From NCBI GenBank assembly GCA_964605715.1, contig CAZSDV010000003.1:19175-62966 (forward strand): 43,792 nucleotides of DNA, written 5' to 3'. How positions within the stretch are numbered: position 1 is the first letter of the stretch; the number at the start of each line of letters is the position of its first letter. The DNA is from an uncultured Acidobacteriota bacterium (lineage in GTDB: Bacteria > Acidobacteriota > Terriglobia > UBA7540 > JAPUME01). Below the pieces are notes generated by a model, which was not told the origin of the DNA, searched no databases, and saw only the letters and a program-made list of their open reading frames with translations. A program made the translations under genes and the position numbers. This document shows, one piece after another, positions 396 to 39,261 of this stretch.

Positions 396-1632
396 TCGAC
401 AGTCTGGTGTGGCTAATGGTTGGTCAGGACGACTAGGTTGGCGGATTCTCGGACGCTCGCTTACTTTGAAGCGGCCCCAGGTACTGGTTACCTTCCTAAC
501 TTTGACAATTACCGCTGCAGTTGCCGCGATGCTTTTGAACCTTTACGGTGATGCACAAGTAAAGATGACCCGTGAGTTTCGATCCTTTGGAGCGAACTTA
601 ATTCTGTCCTCGAATGGCTCGGCTCGTGAAGGCAAGATCATGGCGGAGGTACAAAATGGGCCTGAGGTCTCTCTGATGGCTGAGGGTATGCTGGAAGAGA
701 TCCGTCGGTTGAGTCCTGATTCTCACCGGATCATGGTGGTGGGGATACTAAATGCTGTTGGTCGAGCCCGGAACGTGACGGGCCAGAAGGCTTTAAGGAG
801 CTTCGGTGAACCGGTTATCGTAGTGGGGACTGATTTTACTCTCCTTCATCAGCTGTATTCAGCTTGGCGGCTCCGCGATGAAGTTGTGGTCCAAGCTCAA
901 TCAGGTGCTGTAATCGGTGAGCGGGTGGCTGAGCGATTACTTCTGGAGCGGGGCGATGATCTGGAACTGGAGTTTGAAGGTGGCAGTTCTTCAACTCCCC
1001 TTCGCGTGAAAATTGATAATATCCTTTCGACCGGTGGATCTGAAGATGGCCAGGTATTTCTCTCTTTGGAACAGCTACAGGAAGCTCTAGGGATAAAGGA
1101 TCAAATCAGTCTGGCAGAACTACGTGTTGATGGCCCAACCTTGGAGATCGAAGCTGTTGCGGCTGGGATTGCAAATAGCTTTCCTGAGATTGACGTTCGG
1201 CCGGTGAGGGAGATTGTTTACTCTGAGGGGCAGGTTTTGAAAACGGTTCGCTGGTTACTTTTAACCCTCACATTAATAATCCTGTCCATAACGACACTCT
1301 GCTTACTTGCTACAATTACAGCGATTGTGTTCGAGCGCCAGAGGGAGATTGGATTAATGAAGGCCCTGGGGGCGAGTGACCAGCTCCTAATGGGCTTCTT
1401 CCTTGCAGAAGTGGCGATCCTTGCTTCGGTGGGAAGCTTGGTGGGATTTGGATTTGGCGTGGCCCTGTCTAGGTATCTAGGTATCAGATTGTTTGGAACA
1501 CCCCTTGATCTCTACTGGCCTACCCTGCCGTGGGTAGCTTTGGCCACGGTGGGTGTTGCGCTGCTGGCAGCATGGTCCCCGGTGCAAGTGGTGCGCCGCA
1601 TACATCCAGCGGTGGTGTTGAAGGGAGAGTAA
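388..1632 (+). CDS. ABC transporter permease, MacB/FtsX family with a large extracytoplasmic domain
   Basis: 414-aa ORF with an N-terminal TM helix, a long soluble domain, and a C-terminal FtsX module (FERQREIGLMKALGASDQLLMGFFLAE...). It overlaps both neighbouring genes (8 nt upstream, TAATG downstream). Confidence 0.9.
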   Translation: MTSRQSGVANGWSGRLGWRILGRSLTLKRPQVLVTFLTLTITAAVAAMLLNLYGDAQVKMTREFRSFGANLILSSNGSAREGKIMAEVQNGPEVSLMAEGMLEEIRRLSPDSHRIMVVGILNAVGRARNVTGQKALRSFGEPVIVVGTDFTLLHQLYSAWRLRDEVVVQAQSGAVIGERVAERLLLERGDDLELEFEGGSSSTPLRVKIDNILSTGGSEDGQVFLSLEQLQEALGIKDQISLAELRVDGPTLEIEAVAAGIANSFPEIDVRPVREIVYSEGQVLKTVRWLLLTLTLIILSITTLCLLATITAIVFERQREIGLMKALGASDQLLMGFFLAEVAILASVGSLVGFGFGVALSRYLGIRLFGTPLDLYWPTLPWVALATVGVALLAAWSPVQVVRRIHPAVVLKGE

Positions 1633-2711
1633 TGAGTTTTGTTGAACTGAAAAACTTGGTCAAGAGTTACGGCACCTCAGTTCGGGCGCTCGATCAGGTA
1701 ACTTTTGATGTTGAGTCGGGAGAATGGATTGCTGTCATGGGTCCATCGGGATCAGGAAAAACCACGCTGCTCAACATTCTAGGGGGGCTTGACCACCCTT
1801 CCGAAGGGGAGGTCTGGATTGGCGGTCGGGATGTGACGTGCCTAAATACACAGGAGATGAACCGTTATCGGGCGGAAAAAGTTGGTTTTGTCTTTCAGCA
1901 GTTTCATTTGGTTTCTTATCTGACGGTAGTCGAAAATATCATGCTGGCACAGTATTTTCATAGCGTGGCAGACGAGCAGGAGGCCAGAGATGCCCTTAAG
2001 CAGGTGGGTTTGGGTGAAAGACTTGATTTTTATCCGGCGCAGCTTTCCGGCGGAGAGCAGCAGCGGATTTGTGTGGCGCGGGCCTTAATCAATCAGCCTG
2101 AGCTGATTCTGGCTGACGAGCCAACAGGGAATTTGGATGAAGTAAATGAGGCTCTTATCTTGAGTTTATTGACAGAGTTGCAGCGCAAAGGGAATACCAT
2201 AATTATGGTTACGCACGATCCCGAGGTGGGACGGTTAGCTGACCGGAGAATTGAGCTTCATCACGGGAGATTGAGTGAGTCCCGTTCCCTTCCGTTGGTC
2301 GATGAAGAGTTATTTGACAATCTTTTGAAGAGAATTTGGGTTTTGCAAGAGGATTCAGCTGAAAAAAATCTGGAATTAAGACAGCTACCTGAGCTACGTG
2401 AAAATTTCACAACGCTCACATTAATGGTCGAAGGAGAGTGGATTATCAACAAAGAGGCCACGTTGACCTTGACCAAAAAGGGGCACCAGCGGGCCTCAGA
2501 TATTATACGGCGCCACAGGTTGGCTGAGCGGCTTTTTCGAGACACCTTTGGTTTACCTGAGGAATTGCTGGATGCCAATGCTTGCAAGATTGAGCATACT
2601 TTGAGTGCTGAAGTAACAGAGAAAATCTGTACCTTCCTCCATCATCCCCTGACCTGTCCGCACGGAGCAACCATTCCCCGTGGCCCTTGTTGCGCAGCCG
2701 GACCAGGGTAA
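1632..2711 (+). CDS. ABC transporter ATP-binding protein (MacB/LolD-like) fused to a C-terminal DtxR/MntR-like metal-sensor domain
   Basis: The ATG at 1632 shares TAATG with the permease stop. Motifs: Walker A GPSGSGKTT, signature LSGGEQQR, Walker B LILADEPT, H-loop VTHD. Residues ~223-350 (nt ~2298-2681) read ...TLTKKGHQRASDIIRRHRLAERLFRDTFGLPEELLDANACKIEHTLSAEV...CPHGATIP, which is collinear with the DtxR dimerisation/metal-binding domain. Confidence 0.9.
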   Translation: MSFVELKNLVKSYGTSVRALDQVTFDVESGEWIAVMGPSGSGKTTLLNILGGLDHPSEGEVWIGGRDVTCLNTQEMNRYRAEKVGFVFQQFHLVSYLTVVENIMLAQYFHSVADEQEARDALKQVGLGERLDFYPAQLSGGEQQRICVARALINQPELILADEPTGNLDEVNEALILSLLTELQRKGNTIIMVTHDPEVGRLADRRIELHHGRLSESRSLPLVDEELFDNLLKRIWVLQEDSAEKNLELRQLPELRENFTTLTLMVEGEWIINKEATLTLTKKGHQRASDIIRRHRLAERLFRDTFGLPEELLDANACKIEHTLSAEVTEKICTFLHHPLTCPHGATIPRGPCCAAGPG

Positions 2712-4352: not shown

Positions 4353-4991
4353 TCAGTTTTCCTTCCGGCATATAGCAAAGCCATCTCGAAGTGGAATAAG
4401 GGTTGTGAAGAGTTTAGGTGTCGAGTAGATCAATTGGTTAAACCTTTGTATGCCAAGAGTGTCAGCATCACCTTTTTTAATTTTTCGGGTGACGCGGCCG
4501 TGCCAGAGTACATTATCGGTCACGAGTAGTCCACCAGGTTTGATTCGTGGCAGGGCCCTATCAAAGACAGCCGGATACTGGCTCTTTTCTACATCATTGA
4601 AGATTAGATCAAAGGAGCCCTTGGTGTTATCGAGGATCTCGAAAGCATCTCCGACAAGAATTTGAACTCTGTCGGCTATTCCTGCCCGTTCCAGGTAGGC
4701 CTTTGCCAGTCTAGCATTTTTCGGATTGCTATCGGTGTAGAATACTGAGCCAGATTTACCGATAGCCCTAGCCAGCCAAATAGTAGAGTAACCGATTGCC
4801 GAACCCATTTCGAAGACGCGCTGGGCTCCGGCAAGCTGTGTCAATTGGTAGAGAAGTCGCCCACAGGCAGGGCCGATTATTGGCACTTTGTGAGAGGAAG
4901 CATACGCTTCCATTTCTACCAACACTTCATCGCGGCTAGGTAACAGGCTGGCCAGATAGCGCTCAGTTAAAGAGTCAAGTATTGGAGGCAT
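4353..4991 (-). CDS. class I SAM-dependent O-methyltransferase (caffeoyl-CoA OMT-like)
   Basis: 212 aa. SAM motif VFEMGSAIGYS, then FDLIFNDVEKSQY and GGLLVTDNVLWHG, as in family 3 O-methyltransferases. Confidence 0.85.
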   Translation of the reverse strand: MPPILDSLTERYLASLLPSRDEVLVEMEAYASSHKVPIIGPACGRLLYQLTQLAGAQRVFEMGSAIGYSTIWLARAIGKSGSVFYTDSNPKNARLAKAYLERAGIADRVQILVGDAFEILDNTKGSFDLIFNDVEKSQYPAVFDRALPRIKPGGLLVTDNVLWHGRVTRKIKKGDADTLGIQRFNQLIYSTPKLFTTLIPLRDGFAICRKEN

Positions 4992-14020: not shown

Positions 14021-15286
14021 CTAGAGAAGTGGCATCACCACTTTTGGCCCCCATTCGTTTTGAGGGAGAGGGATCATCACGTTTGTAATTTTTCTGGTGG
14101 TGGGCTGTACCTCTACGACCACCAGAGGTGTAAGTCTAACACTTGCATCCAGTGTTTCTTCCAATGACAGGCTATTCTTATAGGGTTTCTCTGCCCGTGC
14201 AATAACAACCTCAACTGGGTCATCACTAGTATCAGGATCAACTCCCATGAAGTTTGTTGGGAGGGTAAAGGGTGCGAGAAAGACTATGGTAACTATTGCG
14301 ATTTTTTTGAATCCTACCGCCGCAGTGCCATATTCACCAGATGGATCTATTAGTTGAGGTGACTGAGGTGGCATCTTGTAAAACATTCCTTTCATAAAGT
14401 AGCGGGGAGGCAGAATGGTTGCGACCAAAGGCAGGTTTCCGCGAGCCATGAGCCGTTCTTCTACCTTTTTGTTCTCCATGGTGATGTCGAGGATATTGCG
14501 GAGCCATTCTGGTGACTGTGGCCAAGCACTGATGGTAGTAGTTTGGTGTTCAGGCCTCATTTGGATCGCCGTAGCAGCCAGTACTCGTGATCTCAGAAGA
14601 AATCCAGCCGAAAAGGCAAGCGCAAGACAGAAGACATACGCTGCTACCCATCCAGCAGCCCGGGGTCTTATGCAAGCGAAGGTAACTTGGAAAATCCTCC
14701 GCACGGGGTTTCCGGGCAGAAAGGCACCCTTGTCAGCCGAATACTCGCGGTACTCCTGGCCAAATTGTTTTTCCATGCGAGACTCTTCAGATCGCGCAAG
14801 CCCCGCATATATAAACAGCATCGTTACCCAGATGCCGAGCAGCAAGAATCGAGGCCAGATTGTCAATAAACCCCAACCTGCTATTCCTAGGCAGAGATAT
14901 TGGGGATGCATGGATATGCGGTACAGAAACCTTGTTGCCATGCCACGTTTCAGGATCTTATTCCCGTAAACCTGAAGAGCTGAGATGAAGAACCCCCACA
15001 TTCCCACTGCGAAGATGTATCGACCAACTTTACGTTGCCCTTCAATAAAAGTTGAAGATGTAACAACCGAGTGATTAAGGAAGAAGCCATCTAGCCACGC
15101 GGTCAGTGGACTAGCTGAAAGGAATTCAAGTAACGGCTCAAAGCGTACACTAGCGTAGCAGAATCCAGCAACAAGGCTAATCATAATAAGAACCTCGCCA
15201 GCTCCCAGCGCTAAGAGTGACAATGCTCCATGTCGTCCAAAATTTTTAATGGTGATTTTAAACTTTTTCGTAAGGCAATAATCCAA
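14021..15286 (-). CDS. membrane protein with an ICMT/PEMT-like methyltransferase core fused to a C-terminal domain of unknown function
   Basis: 421 aa with a TTG start. RISMHPQYLCLGIAGWG...ARSEESRMEKQFGQEYREYS matches the HPxY...EE..L...FG..Y..Y signature of isoprenylcysteine carboxyl / phospholipid methyltransferases. I could not assign the ~190 C-terminal residues. Confidence 0.7.
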   Translation of the reverse strand: MDYCLTKKFKITIKNFGRHGALSLLALGAGEVLIMISLVAGFCYASVRFEPLLEFLSASPLTAWLDGFFLNHSVVTSSTFIEGQRKVGRYIFAVGMWGFFISALQVYGNKILKRGMATRFLYRISMHPQYLCLGIAGWGLLTIWPRFLLLGIWVTMLFIYAGLARSEESRMEKQFGQEYREYSADKGAFLPGNPVRRIFQVTFACIRPRAAGWVAAYVFCLALAFSAGFLLRSRVLAATAIQMRPEHQTTTISAWPQSPEWLRNILDITMENKKVEERLMARGNLPLVATILPPRYFMKGMFYKMPPQSPQLIDPSGEYGTAAVGFKKIAIVTIVFLAPFTLPTNFMGVDPDTSDDPVEVVIARAEKPYKNSLSLEETLDASVRLTPLVVVEVQPTTRKITNVMIPLPQNEWGPKVVMPLL

Positions 15287-15471: not shown

Positions 15472-17151
15472 ATGGTTTCGAGGACAATGACTAGTTCACT
15501 TGCGAAAACGATTACCTTGGTGGTTCTATTGGTCGTGTTGCGTCCGGGGACAGCACAGAATCAAAGACAAGCGGAGTTTGACAAGCAGAGGCTAGAGGCG
15601 ATCGAAGATCTTTCTGAGTCGTTGGCCAACGACCTATTGGAGATGTCTGTTGCCGTTCGAAACAAAGACCTTGATTTAATTGGTAAGTTTGTTGCCAATC
15701 CGATCGTTGCAAAACCGCCTCCGAGCGAGCCAGATTCTCTGGTGCATGAATTGAAATGGATCCATGCGCATTCCTGGAAACAAAGACATGAAACACTTTC
15801 CCGTACAGAATTCCTTCAGGGTTGGGAGGGTTTTCTGGGCCACTTTTCTGAGATCGAGGATGCCCGCTTCAAAGTAAAGCAGGCAACCTTTGACGAATCA
15901 CAGCAAATCGAGGGCAGTGCAAGCGTAGGGTTCTATCTTATCGGCCGGGATCGTGAAGGGCGTCGCGAGTGGGTGACAGCTCAAGCCGATATTATGGGTA
16001 TAAAGAAGGGGAATGATCCATGGCGGATCAGTCGGTTTGACCTGAACTCGTTCGAATCCAAAATTGCGGTGAAGGATCTTTTTTCTGAAGTCGCGGTGCC
16101 TGCTGGAGTATCCGCTGTTTTTCCACCTTTTGGTGTGGAGCCAAACGACGGCTTCATGTATCACGGTGTTGCCACTGCAGATGTAAACGGAGACGGCCTA
16201 CTGGATGTTGTTGCTACCGGGGTGGATCAAAATTACCTCTACCTCAACGAAGGAAACGGCCGTTTTCGGGATATATCAGCAGAGTCTCTAGTGAAGTATG
16301 CTCCGCAAGGGTCTGGCCCGCTCTTCTTAGATTATGACAACGACGGTGATGTGGACATATTCTTTGCCGCGTTTGGCCCGCAAGTCCTTCTCGAAAATCG
16401 ACTTTTCCCCGACGGCGAACTTCATTTCTGGGACGTTTCTGGGCCTGCAAAGGTTGCCGTACGTGCCGTGGGGTTCAGTGCCGTGGCGGCTGATGTGGAC
16501 GGCAATGGTTTCCCTGATATCTATGTAGCCTCTTACAACCGGTACGGCATGGTAATGCCTAATGCGTGGCACCAGGCTACGAACGGTACACGTAATCCAC
16601 TGTTTATCAACCAGGGTGACGGAACTTTTCGGGAAGCAGCTGCAGATTGGGGTGTTGATGACGGGCGGTGGAGTTATGCAGCTGCTTTTGCTGATATTGA
16701 TGACGACGGGGACCAAGATCTGTACGTAGCTAATGACTTTGGGGAAAATGGTTTTTACCTGAACCAGGGCGACCGATTTGTTGATGTAGCCGCGACCAGA
16801 GGCTTGAAGGATCCTGGGTTTGGTATGGGGGTTTCTTTTGGAGATTACGACAATGATGGAAACCTGGACCTACACATTACGAATATGTCTTCGACTGCCG
16901 GCAACCGGATTCTCCGGCGCCTCTTCCCTGAAGAACAACGTGACGGCCTTTTACTGAAGAAGCTTGCCATAGGAAACAACCTATACAGGAACAACGGAGA
17001 TGGAACCTTTAACGATGTTACTGCTCAGGTAGGCGGCCTGCCAGGAGGTTGGGCATTTGGGGGAGGGTTTGTGGACTTTGATAATGATGGGTGGGAAGAT
17101 CTCTATACCCCCAATGGTTTTATCTCTGGCAAATCAATGAAAGATACCTGA
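15472..17151 (+). CDS. FG-GAP/VCBS repeat protein (CRTAC1-like), N-terminal part ending at an in-frame TGA
   Basis: Signal peptide, then repeated Ca-binding FG-GAP motifs (DVNGDGLLDV, DYDNDGDVDIFF, DVDGNGFPDIYV, DIDDDGDQDLYV, DYDNDGNLDLHI, DFDNDGWEDLY). Ends at TGA 17149-17151, in the same frame as the next ORF. Confidence 0.85.
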   Translation: MVSRTMTSSLAKTITLVVLLVVLRPGTAQNQRQAEFDKQRLEAIEDLSESLANDLLEMSVAVRNKDLDLIGKFVANPIVAKPPPSEPDSLVHELKWIHAHSWKQRHETLSRTEFLQGWEGFLGHFSEIEDARFKVKQATFDESQQIEGSASVGFYLIGRDREGRREWVTAQADIMGIKKGNDPWRISRFDLNSFESKIAVKDLFSEVAVPAGVSAVFPPFGVEPNDGFMYHGVATADVNGDGLLDVVATGVDQNYLYLNEGNGRFRDISAESLVKYAPQGSGPLFLDYDNDGDVDIFFAAFGPQVLLENRLFPDGELHFWDVSGPAKVAVRAVGFSAVAADVDGNGFPDIYVASYNRYGMVMPNAWHQATNGTRNPLFINQGDGTFREAAADWGVDDGRWSYAAAFADIDDDGDQDLYVANDFGENGFYLNQGDRFVDVAATRGLKDPGFGMGVSFGDYDNDGNLDLHITNMSSTAGNRILRRLFPEEQRDGLLLKKLAIGNNLYRNNGDGTFNDVTAQVGGLPGGWAFGGGFVDFDNDGWEDLYTPNGFISGKSMKDT

Positions 17152-18270
17152 AGCTTGTTTTGGCGCCACGTCGTGGCCGCATCAGAAAAGGTTGAGCAAG
17201 CCGGTAACCAGAAGTACCAGACCAATCATATGAGTGCTATTTTTCAGCAAGGACTTTCCTTTAGCGGATTTGAGCGTGACGCGCTGGGGCTCAATATGAA
17301 GGGAAAGCGGTTCCTTGACATCTCTGGTATTTCAGGGGTTGATTCCATTAGCGATGGGCGTGGAGCAATATTTGCTGACTTCGACAATGATGGTGATTCG
17401 GACATCTTTCTGACTACCCTCCAAGGACAAGCTCACCTCTTATTTCGGAACAATGTTGGGCAGGAGAATAACTTTATTCGAGTCCATTTAGAGGGCTCCG
17501 AAAGCGGTCGAGATGCTTTCGGAACCGTGGTGCGCGCAAAAACTTCCTCAGGTATCCTTACTAAGATCAAGGGAGGGGGAAGCGGATTTCTGTCCCAACA
17601 TGATCCCCGTGTGCTGTTAGGTTTGGGAAAAGACCCGACAGCTGAATGGATTGAGATCAAGTGGCCTAGTGGCACGGTTCAGCGTTTTGCAGATGTTGCC
17701 GCAGGTTCCACTTTGAAAATCAAAGAGGACAAGGCCGAACTCCATTTGCTAACAGAGAAACGCTTTCAACTCGCAGATCCTCTTTCGAAAGAGGAAGAGT
17801 TTTTTGCAAACCTAAATTTCAAGCGAGGTGAAGCCTTTCCAGACCTCGAACTTCGTTCTCTCACTAATGAAGTGATTAATTTGCGGAGCCTAGTGAAGCC
17901 AGATCATAGATATTTTGTAAATTTGTGGGCTACCTGGTGCGTGCCTTGCCGGGAGGAGATGCCAGAGCTGCAAAAGCTATATCCACAATTTCAGGAGGCA
18001 GGGATTGAAATCCTCGGCGTCAGTATTGATATCGATACAGCTGATCGTGTTCCACGGTTTCTGCGCGATCACGGGATTCTCTATCCTGCTTACACAGCTG
18101 ACAAGTCTTCGGTCTCAAAAATCTTTTCAGGGGAAGAGGTTGTGATACCAATGTCTTTCCTGCTTGATGGGGAAGGTAGGGTTCTGGAAGTTTTTACTGG
18201 TTGGTCACAGGAAACAGAAGCTAAGATTCATCTGCTAACATCTAACGGTTCGCGGGAAACTACCCGATGA
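17152..18270 (+). CDS. continuation of the FG-GAP protein: one more FG-GAP repeat, an UnbV/ASPIC domain and a TlpA-like thioredoxin domain
   Basis: Same frame as 15472..17151 with no stop other than the TGA, and no RBS or ATG near its 5' end. Contains DFDNDGDSDIFL, GRDAFGTVVRAK...GGGSGFLSQHDPRVLLGLG...IEIKWPSGTVQ (UnbV_ASPIC), and FVNLWATWCVPCREEMPEL (TlpA/ResA-type CxxC). Confidence 0.8.
   Translation, partial: SLFWRHVVAASEKVEQAGNQKYQTNHMSAIFQQGLSFSGFERDALGLNMKGKRFLDISGISGVDSISDGRGAIFADFDNDGDSDIFLTTLQGQAHLLFRNNVGQENNFIRVHLEGSESGRDAFGTVVRAKTSSGILTKIKGGGSGFLSQHDPRVLLGLGKDPTAEWIEIKWPSGTVQRFADVAAGSTLKIKEDKAELHLLTEKRFQLADPLSKEEEFFANLNFKRGEAFPDLELRSLTNEVINLRSLVKPDHRYFVNLWATWCVPCREEMPELQKLYPQFQEAGIEILGVSIDIDTADRVPRFLRDHGILYPAYTADKSSVSKIFSGEEVVIPMSFLLDGEGRVLEVFTGWSQETEAKIHLLTSNGSRETTR
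17161..17181 (+). promoter_or_regulatory. SECIS-like hairpin downstream of the in-frame TGA 17149
   Basis: Counting the U of UGA as +1: pairs G17-C29, C18-G28, C19-G27, A20-U26, C21-G25, with loop G22 U23 C24. Outer pairs G15-C30 (C16 bulged), G14-C32 and U13-A33. Confidence 0.45.
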
Positions 18271-21139: not shown

Positions 21140-21955
21140 ATGAGGATATTGCTAAAGAGCAACTGGAGTGAGCAACTGAGACTGTGGTGCATAATCTTTG
21201 CTCTCGGTGGGTTGGTGCCACCATCGTCAGCGCGAGAAGAAGAAGTGAGGAATCCTCATACCACTTCGGTTGACGTGACAATCGGGGCCAGTTTATTCAG
21301 AGGCCACTGTGCCTTCTGTCACGGGTTGGCAGGAGGAGGTGGGCGAGGACCGAATTTGACGTTGGGAGAGTTTTACCACGGATCGAGTGATGCTGAGCTA
21401 CTTCACACGGTACAAAAAGGACTCCAGGGGACCGAGATGCCAGGCTCCTGGCTAAAGACCCAAAGTCTTTGGAGGATGATTGCTTATGTGCGTTCGTTGA
21501 GTGAAGATTCTCGCCCGACTAAACTACCCGGCAACCCAAAAGACGGCCGGGAGCTATTTCGTGGGCGTGGTGCTTGCCTTCAGTGTCACCTAGTTCAAGG
21601 TCAGGGGGGGCGACTCGGACCGGATCTTACTAATATTGGCTCCCGCCTCAATCCAGAATCCCTAAAGGTTTCAATTTTCAGGCCCAATGAGGTTGTTAAT
21701 CCGGAATACTGGTCTTTTCGGGTTACTGAGAAGAGCGGCACCATCCTCCAGGGAATTCGGCTTAACGAAGGTCCTTATTCACTCCAGATGATGGATATGA
21801 ATGAAAATTTACATTCCTTGTGGAAGCGAAATCTAAAGGTCCATATGACCAAAACATCTTGGATGCCCTCTTATGAAGATGTTTTCAATCAAGATGAGGT
21901 AGATGACATCATTGCCTACCTTTACTCGCTTCGAAGCAAACCGAGGATTAAATGA
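21140..21955 (+). CDS. diheme c-type cytochrome, secreted
   Basis: Signal peptide and two CxxCH sites (CAFCH, CLQCH). The second is followed by GPDLTNIGSR...SWMPSY...DIIAYLYSL, typical of dehydrogenase-associated cytochrome c domains. ATGA overlap with the next gene. Confidence 0.85.
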   Translation: MRILLKSNWSEQLRLWCIIFALGGLVPPSSAREEEVRNPHTTSVDVTIGASLFRGHCAFCHGLAGGGGRGPNLTLGEFYHGSSDAELLHTVQKGLQGTEMPGSWLKTQSLWRMIAYVRSLSEDSRPTKLPGNPKDGRELFRGRGACLQCHLVQGQGGRLGPDLTNIGSRLNPESLKVSIFRPNEVVNPEYWSFRVTEKSGTILQGIRLNEGPYSLQMMDMNENLHSLWKRNLKVHMTKTSWMPSYEDVFNQDEVDDIIAYLYSLRSKPRIK

Positions 21956-23550
21956 AGCGTTTATGGTTTTTCCTTCTTGTCTTTAGCTGCGTGTTAAGAC
22001 TTCCAGCACAGGTTACTTACGAGCGACTACTTCAGGCCGAACAAGAACCTGAGAACTGGCTAACCTATTCAGGAAGTTATTCAAGTCAGCGTTATAGCAA
22101 ACTCAAATTAATTGACCGCAACAATGTTGGGAATCTGATACTGAAGTGGGTTTTTCAGATGAAGACAACAGTGCATGTGGAAACTTCACCTCTGATCGTC
22201 GATGGGATTATGTATGTTACTGATCCCCCTAATAAAGTTCACGCCATTGATACGCGGACAGGCCGTACCTTCTGGTCTCACCAGCGAGCTCTCCCTGGAC
22301 ACATTAACCGTACGGTCTGCTGCGGCTTGGTTAACCGTGGACTAGCCATACTGGGTGATAAACTCTATTGGGGAACATTAGATGCTCACCTGATTGCATT
22401 GGATTCGAAGACAGGGTCTGTTCTTTGGGATGTCGAAGTGGCTGATTACCGAGCTGGCTATGCGATTACCAGTGCTCCACTAGCGGTCAAAAATATGGTG
22501 ATTACGGGTATTGCCGGAGGAGAGTATGGCATTCGTGGGTTTGTGGATGCCTATGATTCAGAGACCGGGAAACAAGTATGGCGATTCTACACCGTTCCTG
22601 GGCCTGGTGAGCCAGGAAACGAAACCTGGGAAGGGGATTCCTGGAAGACAGGAGGCGCTCCCACTTGGGTTACTGGTTCATTTGATCCAGGCTTGAATCT
22701 GATTTACTGGGGAACAGGAAATCCAGGTCCAGATTGGGACGGCAGTGTCCGCGAGGGAGATAACCTGTATTCATCAGCTGTGGTTGCGTTGGATGCCGAC
22801 AGCGGAAAACTTAGGTGGCATTATCAATTCACACCACATGATGTCCATGACTGGGATGCCGCTCAAATCCCTGTCCTAGTCGATGCCAAGTTTCAAGGTC
22901 GTGATCGGAAGTTGATGCTGTGGGGTAATCGTAATGCCTTTTATTATATATTGGATCGAGAGACTGGCAAGTTTCTCTTGGGAAAGGCGTATGCTCGACA
23001 AACCTGGTCCGATGGTTTCACTGCAGATGGCCGACCGATTGTTAAGCCTAATACTGATCCCACCCCTGAGGGCAACCTAGTTTATCCTGGATTGATAGGA
23101 GCTACTAACTGGTTCTCTCCCTCCTACAGTCCAAAATCGGATCTGTTTTACCTTTCGGTGTGGGAGGATTATGGCAGCATTTACTTTACGGAGGAATCCG
23201 ATTATAAACCTGGTGACCGTTATCTTGGCGGTGTTGCGGCGAAGGTTCCTGATGAACCGGGAAGAGGTGTTATTCGTGCCTTGGACCCATGGACTGGCGA
23301 ATTAAAATGGGAACACAAGTTGCAAAAAAAACCTATCACTGGACTTCTCTCTACTGCCGGAGGTCTTGTGTTCGGCGGCTCAGAGGAGGGCTACTTCTAT
23401 GCTCTGGATTCTGATTCAGGTGAGGACCTTTGGCGCATTAACACAGGAGGTCAAGTCCGTGCTGGCCCTGTTACGTATTTAAGTGAAGGAAAGCAGCTGG
23501 TGTCAATTGCCTCCGGTAGCGCCATATTCACTTTTGAGCTTCAGCAGTAG
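21952..23550 (+). CDS. PQQ-dependent alcohol dehydrogenase (methanol/ethanol family)
   Basis: 532 aa with a signal peptide. Vicinal disulfide CC (C123-C124, nt 22318-22323), W-rich propeller repeats, and active-site D300-W-D302 (nt 22849-22857). Confidence 0.92.
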   Translation: MKRLWFFLLVFSCVLRLPAQVTYERLLQAEQEPENWLTYSGSYSSQRYSKLKLIDRNNVGNLILKWVFQMKTTVHVETSPLIVDGIMYVTDPPNKVHAIDTRTGRTFWSHQRALPGHINRTVCCGLVNRGLAILGDKLYWGTLDAHLIALDSKTGSVLWDVEVADYRAGYAITSAPLAVKNMVITGIAGGEYGIRGFVDAYDSETGKQVWRFYTVPGPGEPGNETWEGDSWKTGGAPTWVTGSFDPGLNLIYWGTGNPGPDWDGSVREGDNLYSSAVVALDADSGKLRWHYQFTPHDVHDWDAAQIPVLVDAKFQGRDRKLMLWGNRNAFYYILDRETGKFLLGKAYARQTWSDGFTADGRPIVKPNTDPTPEGNLVYPGLIGATNWFSPSYSPKSDLFYLSVWEDYGSIYFTEESDYKPGDRYLGGVAAKVPDEPGRGVIRALDPWTGELKWEHKLQKKPITGLLSTAGGLVFGGSEEGYFYALDSDSGEDLWRINTGGQVRAGPVTYLSEGKQLVSIASGSAIFTFELQQ

Positions 23551-23755
23551 CCCGTTCCCTTCAGATGGGAGGGGTGGTTACCTCCATAGATTCTGCAGAT
23601 GGCCTCAAAAATAAACTTTCAACTAATAACAGAAAATGAGCTGGGTTTTTGTCTTGCGCTCATAAGGCATGACACTATTATTTTGTTTCTACAACTAAGA
23701 GGAATGCAAATTAATGAGCAGTGAAAAAGCTAAAAGCCCTGGAAGTGCTAGCCTC

Positions 23756-26077
23756 CTAAAGGGTAGCTTTTCTCAGACGTAGTGCGTTGGTAATTACAGA
23801 AATGGAACTGAAGGTCATAGCCCCAGCCGCAATCATCGGGTTAAGTAATAATCCAAAAAAAGGGTAAAGGATTCCAGCAGCGATCGGAACCCCGAGAGAG
23901 TTAAAAATAAGGGCTAAGAAGAGGTTCTGGCGGATATTGCGCATGGTTGTACGACTCAACCGTCGAGCCCGTGTGATTCCACGCAGGTCCCCCTTAATGA
24001 GCGTCACCCCGGCATTTTCCATGGCTATAGCAGTCCCAGTTCCCATGGCGATTCCTACTTGTGCCAGAGCTAGGGCGGGGGCATCATTGATCCCGTCTCC
24101 GGCCATTGCTACCACATGGCCTTGAGCTCGGAGCCGTTTTACCACTTCACCTTTTTGGTCAGGTAACACTTCAGCTTCCATGCCAGTTAGCTCAAGCTTC
24201 TGTGCTACAGCGGTAGCGGTTCCCTTACTGTCGCCTGTGACCATAATGACTTTTATGCCCTCTTGGTTTAGCATCTTTATTGCTTCCGGAGTAGATTTCC
24301 TAATGGGATCTCCTACGGCCACGAGCCCAGCTATTTTGTTTTCCACAGCTACGAATACCACTGTCTGTCCGTCCTGTTGAAGGGTTTCAGCGCGATCGGC
24401 TAGAGTGCTCGGATCAATACCTAATTCTTTAAGCAGAGCGATGTTACCAAGAGTCACCTGTTGTCCATCCACCGTTCCCATTACACCTTTTCCGGTTAGC
24501 GATTGGAATTCTTGCGCTTCATGAAGATCCAAGTCTCTCTCACGTGCGGCCGTTACGATAGCGGCCGCTAGGGGATGCTCGCTTGCCTTTTCCAAGGTTG
24601 CCGCGAGTCGCAGAATCTCTAAGTTGTCCATGTCTGGTACAGTAACAATAGCACTCAATCGGGGCTTACCCTCTGTTAGGGTGCCGGTCTTATCAATTAC
24701 CAACGTATCAATTTTTTCGAGCACTTCCAGAGCCTCCGCATCCTTGATTAGAACTCCCGTGGTTGCGCCAAGGCCGATGCCGACCATGATCGACATTGGC
24801 GTAGCCAGCCCCAGTGCGCAGGGGCAAGCTATAACCAAAACCGCCACAGCATTTACAAGTGCATGAGCCAACGTAGGCTTTGGCCCGAGAAGGGCCCACA
24901 AGAGGAAGGTGATCCCGGCGATGGAGAAAACTGCTGGGATGAAATAGGAGGCCACCACATCAGCTAGGCGTTGAGTCGGTGCACGGCTTCGCTGCGCTTC
25001 ACTTACCATTTGGATGATTTGCGCCAGAAGGGTATCTTTTCCTACTTGTTCCGCGCGCATCTGAAAGGTACCAGTACCGTTTAATGTCCCGCTGGTGACA
25101 CGACTCTTAGAAGATTTTTCCACGGGGATTGCTTCGCCGGTTACAGAGGATTCATCTATGGAGCTTGTCCCCATGAGTACCATGCCGTCTACGGGAATTT
25201 TCTCTCCCGGGCGAACTCGGAGCCGGTCACCCGGCTTAACTCCTTCTATTGGCACATCAATATCTGTCTCGTCATCCTGTACTAGGCAGGCAGTTTTAGG
25301 TGCAAGACCAAGAAGAGCTTTGAGCGCAGTGCCGGTCTTACCACGGGCTCGGAGCTCGAGCACTTGTCCCAACAATACCAGGGTGATAATCATGGCCCCA
25401 GCTTCAAAATAGACGTCAATTCTCCCACTTCCACTTTGAAAAGAAACGGGAATGATGCCTGGCAAAATCGTGACAAGGACACTAAATATGTAGGCGATCC
25501 CGGCACCCACGGTAATGAGGGTGAACATGTTCAAGCTTCGCTGCGTTGTCGACATCCATCCGCGCTGGAGAAGCGGCCATCCTCCCCAAAGAACAACTGG
25601 TGTGGCTAGCGCGAATTGCATCCACCGCCCCATGGCTTTAGAGATTATCTGTTCTAGTGGTTGCCCAGGGATCATTTCTCCCATTGCGAGAACAAGTACA
25701 GGAAATGAGAGAGCGAAGCTTATCCAGAACCGCCGTGTCATCTCGACGAGCTCAGGGTTTTCTTTTTGTTCTAGCGTCAAAGTACGAGGTTCGAGCGCCA
25801 TGCCACATTTCGGGCAGGGGCCAGGTTCAGATTCGTTAACCTCTGGATCCATCGGGCAGACATAGCTGTTTTCTTGGCTTTTTTGCGGGGATCCTACACT
25901 CGATGAAGGTGTATTAGGATTTAGTTGAGCCATTGCAGGTTTCAGGTATTTCGCTGGGTGGCCTTGGAATTTTTCACGGCAGCGCTCGCAGCAGAAGTAA
26001 TATGTTTTGCCGCCGTGCTCGTGGGAGGCTACAGCTGAAGTTGGCTCTATCTCCATTCCGCATACGGGATCTATCAA
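23756..26077 (-). CDS. copA: heavy-metal (Cu+-type) translocating P1B-type ATPase
   Basis: 773 aa. TM CPC motif ([12 protein letters not shown]), DKTGTLT, SEHPLA and GDGINDAP. N-terminal TRASH/YHS-like DPVCGMEI...YYFCCERC plus CPMDPEV...CPKCGMAL, and no GMTCxxC HMA domain. Confidence 0.95.
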
Positions 26078-26098: not shown

Positions 26099-26650
26099 CT
26101 ATTTCATCGTGGCAGGAATCGAGATTCTGCGCCATTCACCTCGCACGATAGCTTTCCGGATCTCTGTGGCTGATTTTCCTTTTCTGGTTAGCTGGTCTGC
26201 AAGGAGGACCTCCTTGATGCAGGTGAGTCACCCAGCTCCGTGATCGGAGGCGTAGCAATCCAGCAAGCTCCCATGACCATGTTGGTCACAATAGCAGTAG
26301 CAGGGTTGCTGTGCCAGAACCTCGGGTATGGCGCTAGCAATACGGTAAGCACGCGCGACAAGAGGTTGGCTTCGGAAATAGGAAGCTGGTACAAGACGCG
26401 GGAAGGGTTTTGCATTCTCCGGATCCTTGTGAAAGGGAGGGGAGGGGCGCATTGTAGGCGACTGGACTGCTGAGGTTGGTTGGCGTGCCGTTTCTGCGCC
26501 CGGCTGCATAGGGGCAGGGGCACGTAAGTTTTCGTTTCTTTTTAGTAATCCGTAGATTCCGAACCCAACCACTAGCAGGACCACAAAAACCCAACTTCGG
26601 TTTTTGGGTTTAGGTTGAGGTTGTTTTCTCTTTTTAATCCTCCGACTCAT
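26099..26650 (-). CDS. membrane-anchored PCYCGC-motif protein, predicted selenoprotein (TGA 26230..26228 read as Sec)
   Basis: ATG 26650 follows GAGGAG. One TM helix (WVFVVLLVVGFGIYGLL), then ...QQPCYCYCDQHGHGSLLDCYASDHGAG-TGA-LTCIKEV...KGKSATEIRKAI.... The frame stays open past the TGA for 42 codons to TAG 26101..26099, 21 nt before the copA ATG. If the TGA is a true stop, the CDS is 26228..26650. Confidence 0.65.
26200..26216 (-). promoter_or_regulatory. SECIS-like hairpin downstream of the in-frame TGA 26230..26228
   Basis: mRNA +15..+31 = CAAGGAG-GUC-CUCCUUG, a perfect 7-bp stem with apical loop G22 U23 C24. Confidence 0.5.
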
Positions 26651-26970
26651 GGCTTGCTCCTCTGTCCCTTTCCTAATGAAGGTAATCAAATGTAATTGGC
26701 TATTCGACGCCTCTTGCATGAAGGCTATGTTTCTTAGTGCCCTTTTCAGGGGATGAAGATTACAGGATATACCAAAAGTTTCGAATTGATGGAACTCAAA
26801 TACTTTTTGGATCTTTAATATAAGATTTAGACCTTGCGTTGCGCTCTGTGTTTGTTATCGAATGACCACGCAAGGGATTCTGTTGGTAGCTGAATCACAT
26901 CAAATCCCAGGTACACTGGTTCCGAGTGATCACCCATTTTTTACGGCCAGCAATAGGAGGGGAAACTATC

Positions 26971-31409: not shown

Positions 31410-32372
31410 TTAATGATTTAGCAGCCTGCTTGCTTGAGGGACTATTACGGAAAGCCGCTGAGGAAATAGGGTAATCTCCAGTGGAAGCATGCCCAGTGGT
31501 TCACCATCAACTTCTATCCTGGTAGGTTCATTAGCCTCTGCCGCAATTTTGCTTCCTTGAAGGTGATGAACTTTCGGGTGGCGGTACACATTGTCGGAGT
31601 AGAGGATTGAATGGTCCCGGACTAAATTGTAGAAGTTCAGGAAATCGATGACCGTGACTTCTAACACACCATCGTTCAGGAGTGCTGTTGGGCATGGTTG
31701 CATTCCTCCTCCATGGAACCTTCCGTTGCCAACTGCAACATTGGAAACAAAGAATGGTAGGGGTTCGGAGGAGCCGTTTAATCGTAGGCGTACAGAGCGC
31801 CCTCGATAGCCGAGGAAAACGCGAAGTGTTGCCCATTTGAAGGCGAGGGCACCACTGAAGCGAGAGAGGAAATTCTTTGAAGCTTCAGCGACTGCTCCTC
31901 CCATGCCGAAGCTCACAAGATTGATGAAAATACGACTCTGATGCTTCCTCTGATGGTCAGTGTAAACTATTTTTCCAAGATCAATCGGAAGCGGAGTGCC
32001 AGTTTTTAGGACTTCGATCATTTCTTCGATGTTTGAGGATATCCCCAGCGTTCTTCTGAAATCACCGCCCGTTCCTAAATTTAGCAATCCTAGGCAAGCG
32101 CTGGGTCGCACAGGCTTATCAGCGGTGAAGAAACCGTTAGCAATTTCATTAATGGTGCCGTCGCCTCCAGCAGCGATTATGCGCTCAAATCCTTTTTCGA
32201 GTAACTCCCGAGCTAGCACGATGCCATGTCCTGGACACTTGGTGAATTGTGTAACGAACGGGCCCAGGTGATATTTCAGTGTCTGTTGAATATGCGACCA
32301 ATTGCGGGCTGCCTTCCCACCTCCTGAGCAGGGATTTACAATAACTGCTGTTTTTTTTGTTTCGTTAGTCAC
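31410..32372 (-). CDS. diacylglycerol-kinase-like lipid kinase (YegS/BmrU/LCB5 family)
   Basis: GTG start. AVIVNPCSGGGKA and IIAAGGDGTINEIANG are hallmarks of the DAGK catalytic domain. 320 aa. Confidence 0.88.
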   Translation of the reverse strand: MTNETKKTAVIVNPCSGGGKAARNWSHIQQTLKYHLGPFVTQFTKCPGHGIVLARELLEKGFERIIAAGGDGTINEIANGFFTADKPVRPSACLGLLNLGTGGDFRRTLGISSNIEEMIEVLKTGTPLPIDLGKIVYTDHQRKHQSRIFINLVSFGMGGAVAEASKNFLSRFSGALAFKWATLRVFLGYRGRSVRLRLNGSSEPLPFFVSNVAVGNGRFHGGGMQPCPTALLNDGVLEVTVIDFLNFYNLVRDHSILYSDNVYRHPKVHHLQGSKIAAEANEPTRIEVDGEPLGMLPLEITLFPQRLSVIVPQASRLLNH

Positions 32373-32388
32373 AAGATTAGGAAACTTA

Positions 32389-33381
32389 TCAGTTTTTTCC
32401 GAGCCGTTCTTGAAGATCCACTACCGTATCCCTCAGTGTTTCCATGGGGTGGCGGCTTTTAAAACCTAGTTCAGTTTGTGCCTTTTGAGAGTTGCAATAC
32501 CAGAATAGCGCTGACATCCTGATGGACTCCTCGTCCAGCTCAAAAGACTTCCCAATCAGAGGGTATAATCGTCGCAACCATCGTGCGGTTACAAGGGAGA
32601 AGCCCAATGAAGGTTGCAGTTTCGGTGCCCTGAGGCCGGAGATTTCTGAAACTGCCCTGATTAATTTTTGGAAAGTCCAGTTTGGCCCCGCAAGAATGTA
32701 GCGTTCACCACAGCTTCCAGACTGCATGGCGGTGATCAATCCACCAGCGACATCACGGACGTCAACGAAGTTCAATCCCCCACGTGGGATGGCAAGAATT
32801 TGCCCTTTCAAGAATAGCGCTACGTCCCGGGTTGAGGAGTTTCGATCATCACCAGGTCCAAGCAAGAGGCTGGGATTCACAAGCACAACCGGTATTTGGA
32901 AGCGCTTCCAGTAGCTGAGGGTTAGTTTTTCAGCAAAGATCTTGCTCAGATAGTAAGGCCATTTTCCTACAACCTCGTGCTTGTAGCCAGAAGTCTCATT
33001 GTGGAGGACAGGGTTTGGGCTGACGGCCACCGTTCCCGATGAGGAGACGACAACCATTTTTTTAATATTGTGTTTTCGGGCTGCTTCGCACACATTCCGG
33101 GTGCCTTCGATATGGGTTTTGTAAAGGATTCCGTTGTCCTTGGGTTTACGCAAAACCATTCCGGCTAGGTGATATATTTCTTGTACGCCCTCAGCGGCCC
33201 GAAGTACATCTGGAAGCGATGTAATATTGGCACGAACCACTTCGATTTCAGAATTATTGTTCCAGTGCGACAGTCCTCGACAGAATATCCGCAGGCGAGC
33301 AAGCTTATCTTTCTCCTTCAGTTGTTCCACCAGATGTTTTCCCAGGAAGCCTGTGGCTCCAGTTATAAGTATGGTCTTCAT
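32389..33381 (-). CDS. NAD-dependent epimerase/dehydratase (extended SDR, HpnA / 3-beta-HSD-like)
   Basis: ILITGATGFLGKHLV Rossmann motif and YYLSK (YxxxK). 330 aa. Confidence 0.88.
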   Translation of the reverse strand: MKTILITGATGFLGKHLVEQLKEKDKLARLRIFCRGLSHWNNNSEIEVVRANITSLPDVLRAAEGVQEIYHLAGMVLRKPKDNGILYKTHIEGTRNVCEAARKHNIKKMVVVSSSGTVAVSPNPVLHNETSGYKHEVVGKWPYYLSKIFAEKLTLSYWKRFQIPVVLVNPSLLLGPGDDRNSSTRDVALFLKGQILAIPRGGLNFVDVRDVAGGLITAMQSGSCGERYILAGPNWTFQKLIRAVSEISGLRAPKLQPSLGFSLVTARWLRRLYPLIGKSFELDEESIRMSALFWYCNSQKAQTELGFKSRHPMETLRDTVVDLQERLGKN

Positions 33382-33387
33382 GAGAAC

Positions 33388-35079
33388 TCAGTTGTCCTCC
33401 GGGGAAGGAAGGACATCGGCCATGCCGATTGGTGGGATGTGCATAAGCGTGATACTCGGTTTTCTTCTTAAAAAAGATTGGGCCATCCCTAGAGCCTCTT
33501 CCATATTTCGGGCACAGTCCCATCCTAAGGTCCTTGCAACGCTAGAATCTTCTGCTCCAACGACGATAACTTTTCCTACATGTGCACGGCCATTTTCTCC
33601 CCAATACCACATGTAAAAAGGGTGCACACCATGGTAGGCGTTGCCGGTGCGGTACATGCGGATGTAATCGGGGTTATGTGCAAATTCCTCTTCGTAGTTC
33701 CTCTGTAGTTCAAAGGAGTCACGCGTCTCAGGCAGGATACGGTGAAAAAACTCAATATAAGAGGGGTGATGCTGTGGATCGAACTCATCATACAGTGGAT
33801 GGGTAAGAATCATCACGCCATTCTTTTTCACCACTGGCATATTTCTGTACATGTTGTGGAAGTACCCCAGTGCCAATACTTGCACGAGCACTGGATTCAA
33901 GATTGAGTTGACGTTGTACGGTGAAATAAATGGGATGCCATATACGACCACATCAGATTGCCCTTCTACGGGCACGCAGTACTGCGCGTAGCAATAGGCT
34001 AGAGTTTTTTGGTGTGTCTGATTTGTTGCTCCGGCATGGATAGCGATTGGCTCATAGGCAGCAGGAAAACTAAAGAGCAGTTTTCTTTTAGCGGAGCGTG
34101 AGAGCTTTTTTAGTATCCATTGCGTTGTCTTAAAGGATGCGCGATCGAAGGCTGAATAATCGTCCTCATTTTTTGCAAAAAATGACATTTTCGGGTGGAA
34201 CATTGCATTGTTGAGAGCCGTTTCGATGTGAAATACCTTCAGGTGTTGATTGATGACTTCCTGGATACGGTCGCAGGATGCAGTAAGCGCAGATTGGGAA
34301 GGGTCAAAATAGGAATTACACTTTAGGATGGTGCCCGGGGTATGGTGCGCCTGTAGAGTGGGGTAATCGCACAGCCCTACGCTAACGGATTTACTTCCAC
34401 CATCCATGGAAACTAGGTTTATGTTGACATAAATCAATAGATCAGATTCGGCTGCACGCCGATTGATGCGTACTCGCTCGCCGTTTTCAGTAGTGCCGAG
34501 CTCAACCATGCCGTTAGGTGCCTCACCGTCATGGTTGTAGAGACGATTCGGATAGAATTCCCGGAATATTTTTCTTCCCACCGCATGTTGGATTTCAAAT
34601 GGTGCCATCTTCCGGTGAAATGAAGTGGCGATAATAATGTGAATATCTTCGATATTTTTTTCGGTCAATAACCTCAGCAGGATGTTTAGGATTGTTTCAC
34701 GCACGTCAGGTTGTGGCATCTTTGGAAGAGGAAGGGAAATGTCGTCGATAGCGATTGTTACCTTCATGCCTGGTGTGAGCGAAGCTGCCAGCGGGTCCAT
34801 TTCTTCCGGATGGTCAATGGCATATTCGACAGCGGAGTCACGATTTAGAAGTCCTGGAATTGTGGGCTTAGGATAGACTACGCGCGTTCCGGCAGGCATT
34901 TTCACGTCGGTAAGATCCTCGCCGTTCCACAAAAGACGCGATGAGGAATTGCGGGTTAGGTGTTCTACGCAACCACTATCTGATACTAGTGCGTTTCGCC
35001 CCACTGCGTTAGGCGTCGGATCAAGAGATTCCAATATTTCAGTTCCCGCGGGAAAAATCACATTACTGGTTGCTGGCAT
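33388..35079 (-). CDS. LarA-like (lactate racemase N-terminal domain / DUF2088) protein, divergent, 563 aa
   Basis: VTIAIDDISLPLP, IIIATSFHRKM and ESDLLIYVN...GGSKSVSVGLCDYPTLQAHH are collinear with the LarA segments ISSDHTRPVP, VATGFHRPS and GGRKS...(16)...H as I recall them. ATG 35079 follows GGAAGGGGAG. Confidence 0.75.
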   Translation of the reverse strand: MPATSNVIFPAGTEILESLDPTPNAVGRNALVSDSGCVEHLTRNSSSRLLWNGEDLTDVKMPAGTRVVYPKPTIPGLLNRDSAVEYAIDHPEEMDPLAASLTPGMKVTIAIDDISLPLPKMPQPDVRETILNILLRLLTEKNIEDIHIIIATSFHRKMAPFEIQHAVGRKIFREFYPNRLYNHDGEAPNGMVELGTTENGERVRINRRAAESDLLIYVNINLVSMDGGSKSVSVGLCDYPTLQAHHTPGTILKCNSYFDPSQSALTASCDRIQEVINQHLKVFHIETALNNAMFHPKMSFFAKNEDDYSAFDRASFKTTQWILKKLSRSAKRKLLFSFPAAYEPIAIHAGATNQTHQKTLAYCYAQYCVPVEGQSDVVVYGIPFISPYNVNSILNPVLVQVLALGYFHNMYRNMPVVKKNGVMILTHPLYDEFDPQHHPSYIEFFHRILPETRDSFELQRNYEEEFAHNPDYIRMYRTGNAYHGVHPFYMWYWGENGRAHVGKVIVVGAEDSSVARTLGWDCARNMEEALGMAQSFLRRKPSITLMHIPPIGMADVLPSPEDN

Positions 35080-35770: not shown

Positions 35771-35786
35771 CTCGGTAAGATCGTTG

Positions 35787-36389: not shown

Positions 36390-36435
36390 TAATCTCCAGC
36401 AGGTTTGGCCTCAAATTTTAGAAATTTAAATTTTC

Positions 36436-39195: not shown

Positions 39196-39261
39196 GGAAA
39201 TGTTTCGTCGGCCTCGTTTTATATTGAGTCACTCGCCAGCGGCCATTTCTACGAAACTAGT

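Follow-up and report, generated by a model that had tools for sequence, protein, structure and literature searches.

Does the single in-frame TGA in a long gene of an uncultured Acidobacteriota bacterium end a protein, mark a decayed gene, or stand for an amino acid? The gene lies on a stretch of 43,792 nucleotides (contig CAZSDV010000003.1), hereafter the window, in which the open reading frames (ORFs) 15472..17151 and 17155..18270 share one frame and are separated solely by the TGA at 17149-17151. A preliminary description of this DNA held that the TGA joins the two ORFs into one protein of 932 amino acids (aa), and that it is either a selenocysteine (Sec) codon or the sign of a recent inactivation. 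Herein, we describe evidence for the first option: conservation specific to TGA, a covarying hairpin of the type of the bacterial selenocysteine insertion sequence (SECIS), homologues with TGC at the site, and purifying selection downstream. Codon 560 is very probably decoded as selenocysteine, the residue itself being one that we infer from sequence comparison. The overall reading, namely one exported 932-aa selenoprotein that combines SECIS-directed Sec at the UGA with a proposed chemistry between Sec and a CxxC motif, has in our estimate a probability of roughly 0.88.

One reading frame interrupted by a single TGA

The frame, the coordinates, and the context given in the preliminary description were all confirmed. 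The residues read ...GFISGKSMKDT before the TGA and SLFWRHVVAASEK... after it, and the longer upstream context is NGFISGKSMKDT, followed by the TGA and SLFWRHVVAASEK. The stop falls within the series of FG-GAP repeats, as had been noticed, and an additional DFDNDGDSDIF repeat lies 3' of it. We also found, in agreement with that description, that the earliest ATG of the second ORF is codon 27 past the TGA, that inspection of the sequence ahead of this ORF reveals no GGAGG-like or other Shine-Dalgarno motif, and that C823 and C826, both in WATWCVPC, are the only cysteines of the 932-aa conceptual product. A scan for promoters and terminators at the ORF junction gave chance-level counts and nothing at 17151. 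For the 932-codon gene as a whole, the ATG at 15487 is a possible alternative start.

A reassignment of UGA in the genetic code was considered and rejected, since 12 of the 30 large ORFs in the window end with TGA, and the present gene, with its stop at 18268-18270, is one of them. The window was also checked for further genes with an in-frame TGA, and no credible candidate was found.

The TGA is conserved among divergent homologues

When the fused protein was used as a query, 105 of the 120 best matches stopped at ...NGF[IV]SGxxMxDT, that is, at the residue just before the TGA of the window. These 105 matches represent separate 90%-identity clusters, have 55-89% identity, and stem from ENA, JGI, NCBI, and Logan. 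With the 3' half as the query, the best 120 matches were all fragments of 338-393 aa, named by their sources as 'peroxiredoxin', 'thiol-disulfide isomerase/thioredoxin', 'ASPIC/UnbV domain-containing protein', or 'redoxin domain-containing protein'. In the closest relative (87% identity) the split recurs on seven or more contigs, which come from independent assemblies and have another gene neighbourhood than the window; all members of its cluster (26/26) are 557 aa long, and its C-terminal half is recorded as Acidobacteriota. An exhaustive phmmer search with P0008, a homologue carrying Cys at the site, against 1.84 billion cluster representatives returned 4,269 proteins at E <=1e-30, and 35 of the best 150 terminate exactly ahead of the site.

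At the DNA level, metagenomes were searched with a pattern blind to the codon in question, GAYACN-NNN-WSN-NNN-TTYTGGMGNCANGTNGT, in which the flanking codons were fixed (D-T-NNN-S-x-F-W-R-[HQ]-V-V). Homologous loci made up 118 of the 120 returned, and NNN was TGA in 118/118; none of these loci had TAA, TAG, TGC, or TGT at the site. The frame stays open and conserved 3' of the TGA in the same 118 loci. The remaining two loci were discarded as chance matches full of stops. Among species-representative genomes, the same TGA was found in metagenome-assembled genomes (MAGs) of Acidobacteria, Vicinamibacteria, and Pyrinomonadaceae and, at about 33-38% identity, in Phycisphaerae, Pirellulaceae, Mariniblastus, Verrucomicrobiales, and Akkermansiaceae; the matches listed in this contig scan were mostly distant FG-GAP paralogues, and about 10 loci were informative. 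The motif common across the phyla is D-[TLC]-U-S-x-[FY]-W-R-[QHR]-V-V, where U denotes the putative Sec. Judged from these sequences, such a recurrence of the TGA, at one site in over 100 divergent homologues, is far beyond chance.

A nonsense mutation, a pseudogene, or a sequencing or assembly error would account for a lone in-frame stop between intact flanks, which is just how a very young pseudogene looks. Against this stand the identical TGA in all 118 metagenome loci, the stop at the same place in 105 of the 120 best protein clusters, the recurrence of the TGA in several phyla and in independent assemblies, and the strong in-frame conservation past the stop. The pseudogene option of the preliminary description is thereby excluded, and the sequencing error that it had suggested checking for is answered by the same recurrence; we give this whole class of explanations a negligible probability.

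A true split gene is a second possibility, in which the UGA terminates translation, a second polypeptide (the last propeller blade, the ASPIC domain, and the TlpA-like domain) is made by re-initiation, and the two chains assemble. Gene callers and the database entries examined do annotate two ORFs throughout: each of the hundreds of Sec-type entries among them is recorded as two proteins. A TTG also lies two codons past the stop. However, a mere terminator would drift, and the stop is TGA in 118/118 loci and never TAA or TAG; since it stays TGA in every lineage, a plain terminator between two genes is not what one would expect. Besides the missing Shine-Dalgarno motif, no start is conserved (codon 2 past the TGA encodes L, Q, H, F, V, T, A, or E), and the second chain would have no signal peptide, even though TlpA-like domains act outside the cytoplasm. 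In addition, homologues with TGC and other sense codons are single polypeptides, and the hairpin described below has SECIS geometry. A split gene is therefore highly improbable.

Two variations among the distant homologues were noted on their own account. In a Pirellulaceae MAG (locus L008, about 4379-4384), Cys directly precedes the putative Sec (G-D-C-U-S-F-F-W-R), and this adjacent pair recalls vicinal selenenylsulfide centres. Planctomycete and verrucomicrobial forms carry additional C-terminal TPR repeats with a conserved ERNC motif.

A SECIS-type hairpin follows the TGA

The preliminary description had drawn a hairpin 3' of the TGA. The hairpin exists: it begins about 11-14 nucleotides (nt) 3' of the UGA and presents its apical G-U 17-18 nt 3' of it, a geometry that resembles that of E. 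coli fdhF. Counting the T of the TGA as position 1, RNAfold pairs positions 15-21 of the window sequence with 25-28 and 30-32, leaving C29 bulged and G22 U23 C24 in the loop, at -9.0 kcal/mol. The register drawn earlier, with C16 bulged, is an equivalent alternative to this one. A synonymous GCG to GCC change in the window moves the register of the stem, bulging one C.

We aligned 102 distinct 42-nt segments from the TGA onwards. Pairing of positions 15-20 with 26-31 holds in 95.6% of cells, versus 19-69% in controls with slid partners, and the observed level was reached in 0 of 500 shuffles. The apical G22 and U23 are invariant. The pair 18:28 takes all four Watson-Crick forms, with UA in 54 sequences, CG in 39, GU in 4, AU in 2, GC in 2, and a mismatch in 1. 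One partner is the third (wobble) base of an Arg codon; the other is the initial base of a codon three places later, which alternates among Thr, Ala, Pro, and Ser in such a way that complementarity is kept.

The published model of the bacterial SECIS (bSECIS) comprises a loop of 3-9 nt, a stem of 4-16 bp, an energy of <=-7.5 kcal/mol, a G at loop position 1 or 2 (usually G[G/U]), and a distance of 16-37 nt between UGA and loop (PMC13188914). On all four published criteria the hairpin agrees with the model: it has a GUC or GGUCG loop, a stem of 5-7 bp, and a spacing of 17-18 nt, and its energy, whose median is -9.3 kcal/mol, is <=-7.5 in 112 of the 113 sequences.

Sense-codon homologues and the retention of CxxC

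The preliminary description had asked whether TGA alternates with TGC in orthologues, and TGC homologues indeed exist. In P0008 the codon is TGC (Cys), the thioredoxin domain is kept, and all six hairpin pairs are intact (6/6); this homologue probably represents a recent change from Sec to Cys. Three homologues that retain CxxC have other residues, namely P0005 (GTG, Val, hairpin 4/6 pairs), P0006 (TTG, Leu, 5/6), and P0007 (TCG, Ser, 5/6). Two more distant ones have no thioredoxin domain: P0017 (TGC, Cys), whose hairpin is degraded to -5.9 kcal/mol, and P0020 (TCG, Ser), with 2/6 pairs. The W-R peptide persists in P0017 and P0020 although their hairpin is gone, so the stem-loop goes with the TGA state rather than with the protein motif alone. 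Altogether, Cys occupies the site in P0008, P0016, P0017, P0293, P0397, and P0400. The suggestion that a conserved Cys would align with the TGA was thus borne out in part: TGC homologues place it in a D-x-C-S-x-F-W-R context, and most of the wider family has S, E, D, A, N, or Q there.

The residue at the site is linked to the distant CxxC. In 95 of the 97 Sec-type loci with a complete 3' part, including those of other phyla, CxxC follows 257-302 residues past Sec, so the fusion to a TlpA-like domain, earlier thought unusual, is the rule within the subfamily. An intact CxxC is present in 98 of 101 forms with Sec or Cys versus 10 of 42 in which another residue occupies the site (Fisher's exact test, about 9e-20, a value that ignores kinship among the sequences and includes a few spurious regular-expression matches). 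Among representatives of the wider family, the thioredoxin motif is often degenerate (SxxC, CxxS, SxxS, etc.). The joint retention of Sec or Cys and CxxC, as read from these alignments, suggests a Sec-CxxC redox relay.

Weighing the selenocysteine reading

Several observations count against selenocysteine. Covariation is confined to one stem pair, the other five being near-invariant and fixed by the W-R-x-V-V codons, and part of the U-A to C-G switch at 18:28 could track genomic GC content. The G-C and A-U forms at this pair and the near absence of non-complementary combinations make GC content an insufficient explanation. Folded over 60 nt, the sequence does not exceed its shuffles in stability (z -0.2 to -0.8); for so short a hairpin thermodynamics alone is uninformative, and the comparative counts were used instead. 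Rfam gave no match to a SECIS family and only noise, both in a scan of the window at gathering thresholds and in a permissive scan of 17100-17260. P0005, P0006, and P0007, which form one clade (L206-L208), keep CxxC and a remnant of the hairpin but have Val, Leu, or Ser at the site; Sec is thus dispensable in some lineages, and in this clade the site looks unconstrained, perhaps following loss of the Sec trait. Among full-length representatives of the wider family the aligned residue is S in 17, E in 13, D in 9, A in 8, N in 6, C in 6, Q in 3, and others in the rest. The structural model of P0008 described below is less confident near the Sec site (predicted local distance difference test, pLDDT, 54-71). 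Finally, selA, selB, selC, and selD were not found within the 43.8-kb window, where tRNA-Met is the only tRNA gene, and a scan of 1.5 Mb of loci likewise gave no tRNA-Sec. Documented Sec users do occur among the Acidobacteriota.

In a third explanation, the UGA is recoded as a residue other than Sec: a near-cognate tRNA (for Trp, Cys, or Arg) would read through it independently of the SECIS, or a SelB-like factor would insert Cys. Hairpin-dependent insertion of Cys by a Cys-charged Sec-like tRNA has been proposed for some bacteria, both the inserted residue and the Sec machinery of this genome are things that we infer, and some lineages tolerate V, L, or S. On the other hand, the hairpin fits the SelB-type consensus with its apical G-U 17-18 nt past the UGA, and among sense-codon replacements with an intact hairpin the nearest is Cys (TGC), the customary partner of Sec. 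The site is also coupled to an intact CxxC, as a redox chalcogen would be, and the phylum includes known Sec users. We consider recoding to another residue very unlikely, and selenocysteine remains the preferred reading of codon 560.

Domain architecture and predicted structure

From its N-terminus, the 932-aa product comprises a predicted signal peptide, an alpha/beta domain, an FG-GAP propeller, an UnbV/ASPIC domain, and a TlpA-like thioredoxin domain (Table 1). The propeller, in which Pfam FG-GAP_3 marks six stretches (E 9e-42), is interrupted by a helical insertion that begins at Sec.

Table 1. Positions in the window of the probable selenoprotein gene and its parts
Feature	Positions	Strand	Remarks
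Selenoprotein gene, whole	15472..18270	+	932 codons; Sec = codon 560; own TGA stop at 18268-18270
Predicted Sec-type (export) signal peptide	15472..15558	+	MVSRTMTSSLAKTITLVVLLVVLRPGTA, then QN; judged by eye
FG-GAP/VCBS beta-propeller	16180..17511	+	Dx[DN]xDG calcium-type motifs; Pfam and fold match
UGA, probable selenocysteine codon	17149..17151	+	codon 560; motif D-T-U-S-L-F-W-R-H-V-V
Bacterial SECIS-type hairpin	17163..17180	+	stem 17163-17169 with 17173-17176 and 17178-17180; loop G-U-C at 17170-17172
UnbV_ASPIC domain	17515..17715	+	aa 682-748; Pfam E 8e-16
TlpA/ResA-like thioredoxin-fold domain	17824..18216	+	aa 785-915; Pfam AhpC-TSA/Redoxin
Redox motif C823-V-P-C826	17938..17949	+	within WATWCVPC; WCVPC = aa 822-826

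Pfam, NCBIfam, and both sequence and fold matches in the PDB concur on a thioredoxin fold with a W-C-x-x-C active site. The best NCBIfam matches of this domain are ResA (E 5e-22) and TlpA (E 5e-18), and a PDB profile search matched TlpA/ResA at E 5e-24. Its scores lie below the equivalog-level cut-offs for either protein (78.5 bits vs 170 for ResA, 65.6 vs 230 for TlpA). By its sequence, then, the domain is a relative of TlpA/ResA at the family or domain level and not TlpA or ResA proper.

The structure was modelled with AlphaFold2 on the Cys homologue P0008, which is 50% identical to the window protein, from an alignment of 147 rows (mean pLDDT 88, predicted template modelling score 0.87). 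Residues 1-33 are disordered in the model. Cys590, the equivalent of Sec, opens helix 590-603 in a two-helix insertion between late propeller blades; a reactive chalcogen at the N-terminus of a helix is a typical arrangement. The CxxC (852-855) lies at the start of helix 853-871, in thioredoxin-like fashion. Foldseek comparison of the model with the PDB placed murine CRTAC1 (9etn) at the top (E 1e-28, TM 0.72 on target), with ResA, TlpA, and DsbE structures below it.

Proposed mechanism

We propose that Sec insertion would follow the standard bacterial route, whereby the hairpin recruits SelB-GTP with Sec-tRNASec to decode the UGA. Under shortage of selenium or of the decoding machinery, translation would stop at the UGA and leave a fragment of 559 aa. 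The full-length protein would probably be exported by means of its N-terminal signal peptide, and Sec would sit at the N-terminus of a helix, in the insertion between two late propeller blades. There, the selenol would be the reactive centre, attacking an oxidised extracytoplasmic substrate such as a peroxide or a disulfide. The resulting selenenic acid or selenenylsulfide would be resolved by the fused WCVPC, which in turn would be re-reduced by a membrane reductant of the CcdA/DsbD type; no CcdA/DsbD gene was found in the window. Such a relay would plausibly amount to a cycle like that of GPx or peroxiredoxin with a thioredoxin built in.

Since the thiols of the CxxC are the only ones in the protein, oxidised selenium would have to be resolved by the CxxC, by an external thiol, or by another chain. 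Sec could instead be a ligand of a metal or cofactor, or a structural selenol, with no relay and with a TlpA-like domain that serves other periplasmic clients. TlpA proteins usually reduce separate clients, e.g., ScoI and CoxB (PDB 4txo, 4txv), ten homologues retain CxxC without Sec or Cys, and the genes close to this one in the window include those for a copper P-type ATPase and a cytochrome c, though neighbourhoods are not conserved. Against a role without a relay, Sec/Cys and an intact CxxC are kept or lost jointly (98/101 vs 10/42), the mature window protein has no other thiol to resolve an oxidised Sec, and the fusion is conserved across phyla. We regard such a role as unlikely, though it deserves to be kept in mind beside the favoured Sec-CxxC relay.

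Genomic context

The neighbours of the gene in the window are unrelated housekeeping genes, among which the selenoprotein gene appears to stand alone. Upstream lie rimP, nusA, infB, truB, a gene for an Xaa-Pro aminopeptidase, and a divergent gene for a membrane protein resembling PEMT (phospholipid methyltransferase); downstream lie dksA and genes for a ferredoxin, an enolase-superfamily protein, a cytochrome c, a pyrroloquinoline quinone (PQQ) dehydrogenase, and a heavy-metal P-type ATPase. Across 123 loci there was no conserved gene neighbourhood, save for one recurrent paralogue, about 1200 aa long and carrying TPR and FG-GAP/ASPIC domains, found in 21 of the 123 (e.g., L116) and absent from the window.

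Some neighbours were noted in their own right. The divergent membrane protein (14021-15286, minus strand) has 421 aa, of which only aa 106-177 weakly match PEMT. In 21140-26077, the cytochrome c gene lies directly 5' of that for the PQQ-dependent dehydrogenase, and the heavy-metal P-type ATPase, of the YHS/HMBD type, follows on the opposite strand. A lipid-related run on the minus strand (31410-40860) encodes a diacylglycerol-kinase-like protein, an NAD-epimerase, a 563-aa LarA-N-like protein, a HAD hydrolase, a PlsY-like acyltransferase, a 919-aa enzyme with carrier-protein and AMP-binding parts, and an acyl reductase of the 'male sterility' type; such a cluster might specify an unusual membrane lipid. 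In the ORF 1530-2711 (plus strand), an ABC-transporter ATPase domain (aa 54-199) is combined with the metal-binding domain found at the C-terminus of iron-dependent repressors (aa 315-384). This ORF shares about 100 nt with the FtsX/MacB-type permease ORF before it and represents either an unusual fusion or a pair of genes taken for a single one. Two ORFs, 26228-26719 (minus strand, 163 aa) and 42578-43522 (plus strand, 314 aa), had no Pfam match at E <=1e-5.

Comparison with known systems

The gene shares with other bacterial genes that carry a SECIS within the ORF, of which E. coli fdhF is the archetype, an in-frame UGA, a short hairpin directly after it with a small apical G-U loop 17-18 nt past the UGA, a stem of 5-7 bp at <=-7.5 kcal/mol, and the existence of homologues with a Cys codon. 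It differs from them in that the host family is new for Sec, in that the Sec lies in an insertion of a beta-propeller and not in a UxxC/CxxU motif of a thioredoxin fold or at a molybdopterin site, and in that the stem is mostly fixed by the W-R-x-V-V codons, with one pair free to covary.

With the CRTAC1/ASPIC-UnbV family the protein has in common FG-GAP repeats followed by UnbV_ASPIC and, through the P0008 model, the fold match to CRTAC1 9etn; NCBI labels its sense-codon relatives 'CRTAC1 family protein'. It differs in the putative Sec within D-[TLC]-U-S-x-[FY]-W-R, an additional N-terminal domain, and the C-terminal TlpA-like domain. That last domain matches TlpA, ResA, and DsbE (CcmG) by sequence and fold and has the active site WATWCVPC, but here it is fused to a propeller protein of about 780 aa instead of being anchored alone in the membrane. 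The catalogued TlpA-type and redoxin selenoproteins are likewise extracytoplasmic thioredoxin-fold proteins of Sec-using bacteria. Whereas in those proteins Sec replaces an active-site Cys of the thioredoxin motif, the window protein has an all-cysteine CxxC, and its Sec would lie about 263 residues upstream in another domain. NCBIfam NF041054 gave a weak match to the thioredoxin domain (E 2e-9).

A 2026 inventory lists 119 prokaryotic selenoprotein families and subfamilies, and its Table 1 has no FG-GAP, VCBS, ASPIC/UnbV, or CRTAC1 entry (PMC13188914). NCBIfam release 20 contains no model for the propeller part, its matches being to the thioredoxin domain only and all below cut-off. The deep-Sep and BSepDB papers make no mention of an FG-GAP/ASPIC selenoprotein family, and full-text literature searches found nothing relevant that links selenoproteins or selenocysteine to FG-GAP, ASPIC, UnbV, CRTAC1, or VCBS. 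For the bacterial CRTAC1-like family, the literature searched holds no established biochemical activity and no link to selenium. Within that literature, this is apparently an undescribed selenoprotein family that uses the standard Sec mechanism.

Significance

Recognition of the Sec codon would correct two-gene models and add a family to the prokaryotic selenoproteome. Sec-type entries now bear names such as 'VCBS repeat-containing', 'hypothetical', 'peroxiredoxin', 'thiol-disulfide isomerase', and 'ASPIC/UnbV domain-containing, partial', and members of the family are frequent in phyla of soil and sediment, of which the selenoprotein catalogues consulted give thin coverage. Probable export and a Sec outside the thioredoxin fold are both uncommon among bacterial selenoproteins. 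The placement of the SECIS inside the W-R-x-V-V peptide puts RNA and protein constraints on the same codons, as seen in the covariation of the Arg wobble base with the Thr/Ala/Pro/Ser codon.

The coupling of Sec to CxxC points to redox chemistry in the very large CRTAC1-like family of bacteria. That Acidobacteriota, Planctomycetota, and Verrucomicrobiota share a large, unrecognised family of exported selenoenzymes, with a catalytic relay between a Sec on the helical insertion of a CRTAC1-like, calcium-binding propeller and the CxxC of the TlpA-like domain, is a proposal to which we give even odds. If it is true, paralogues lacking both Sec and CxxC would be redox-dead derivatives, and the relay would offer the first biochemical handle on the abundant, functionally blank ASPIC/UnbV (CRTAC1-like) proteins of bacteria.

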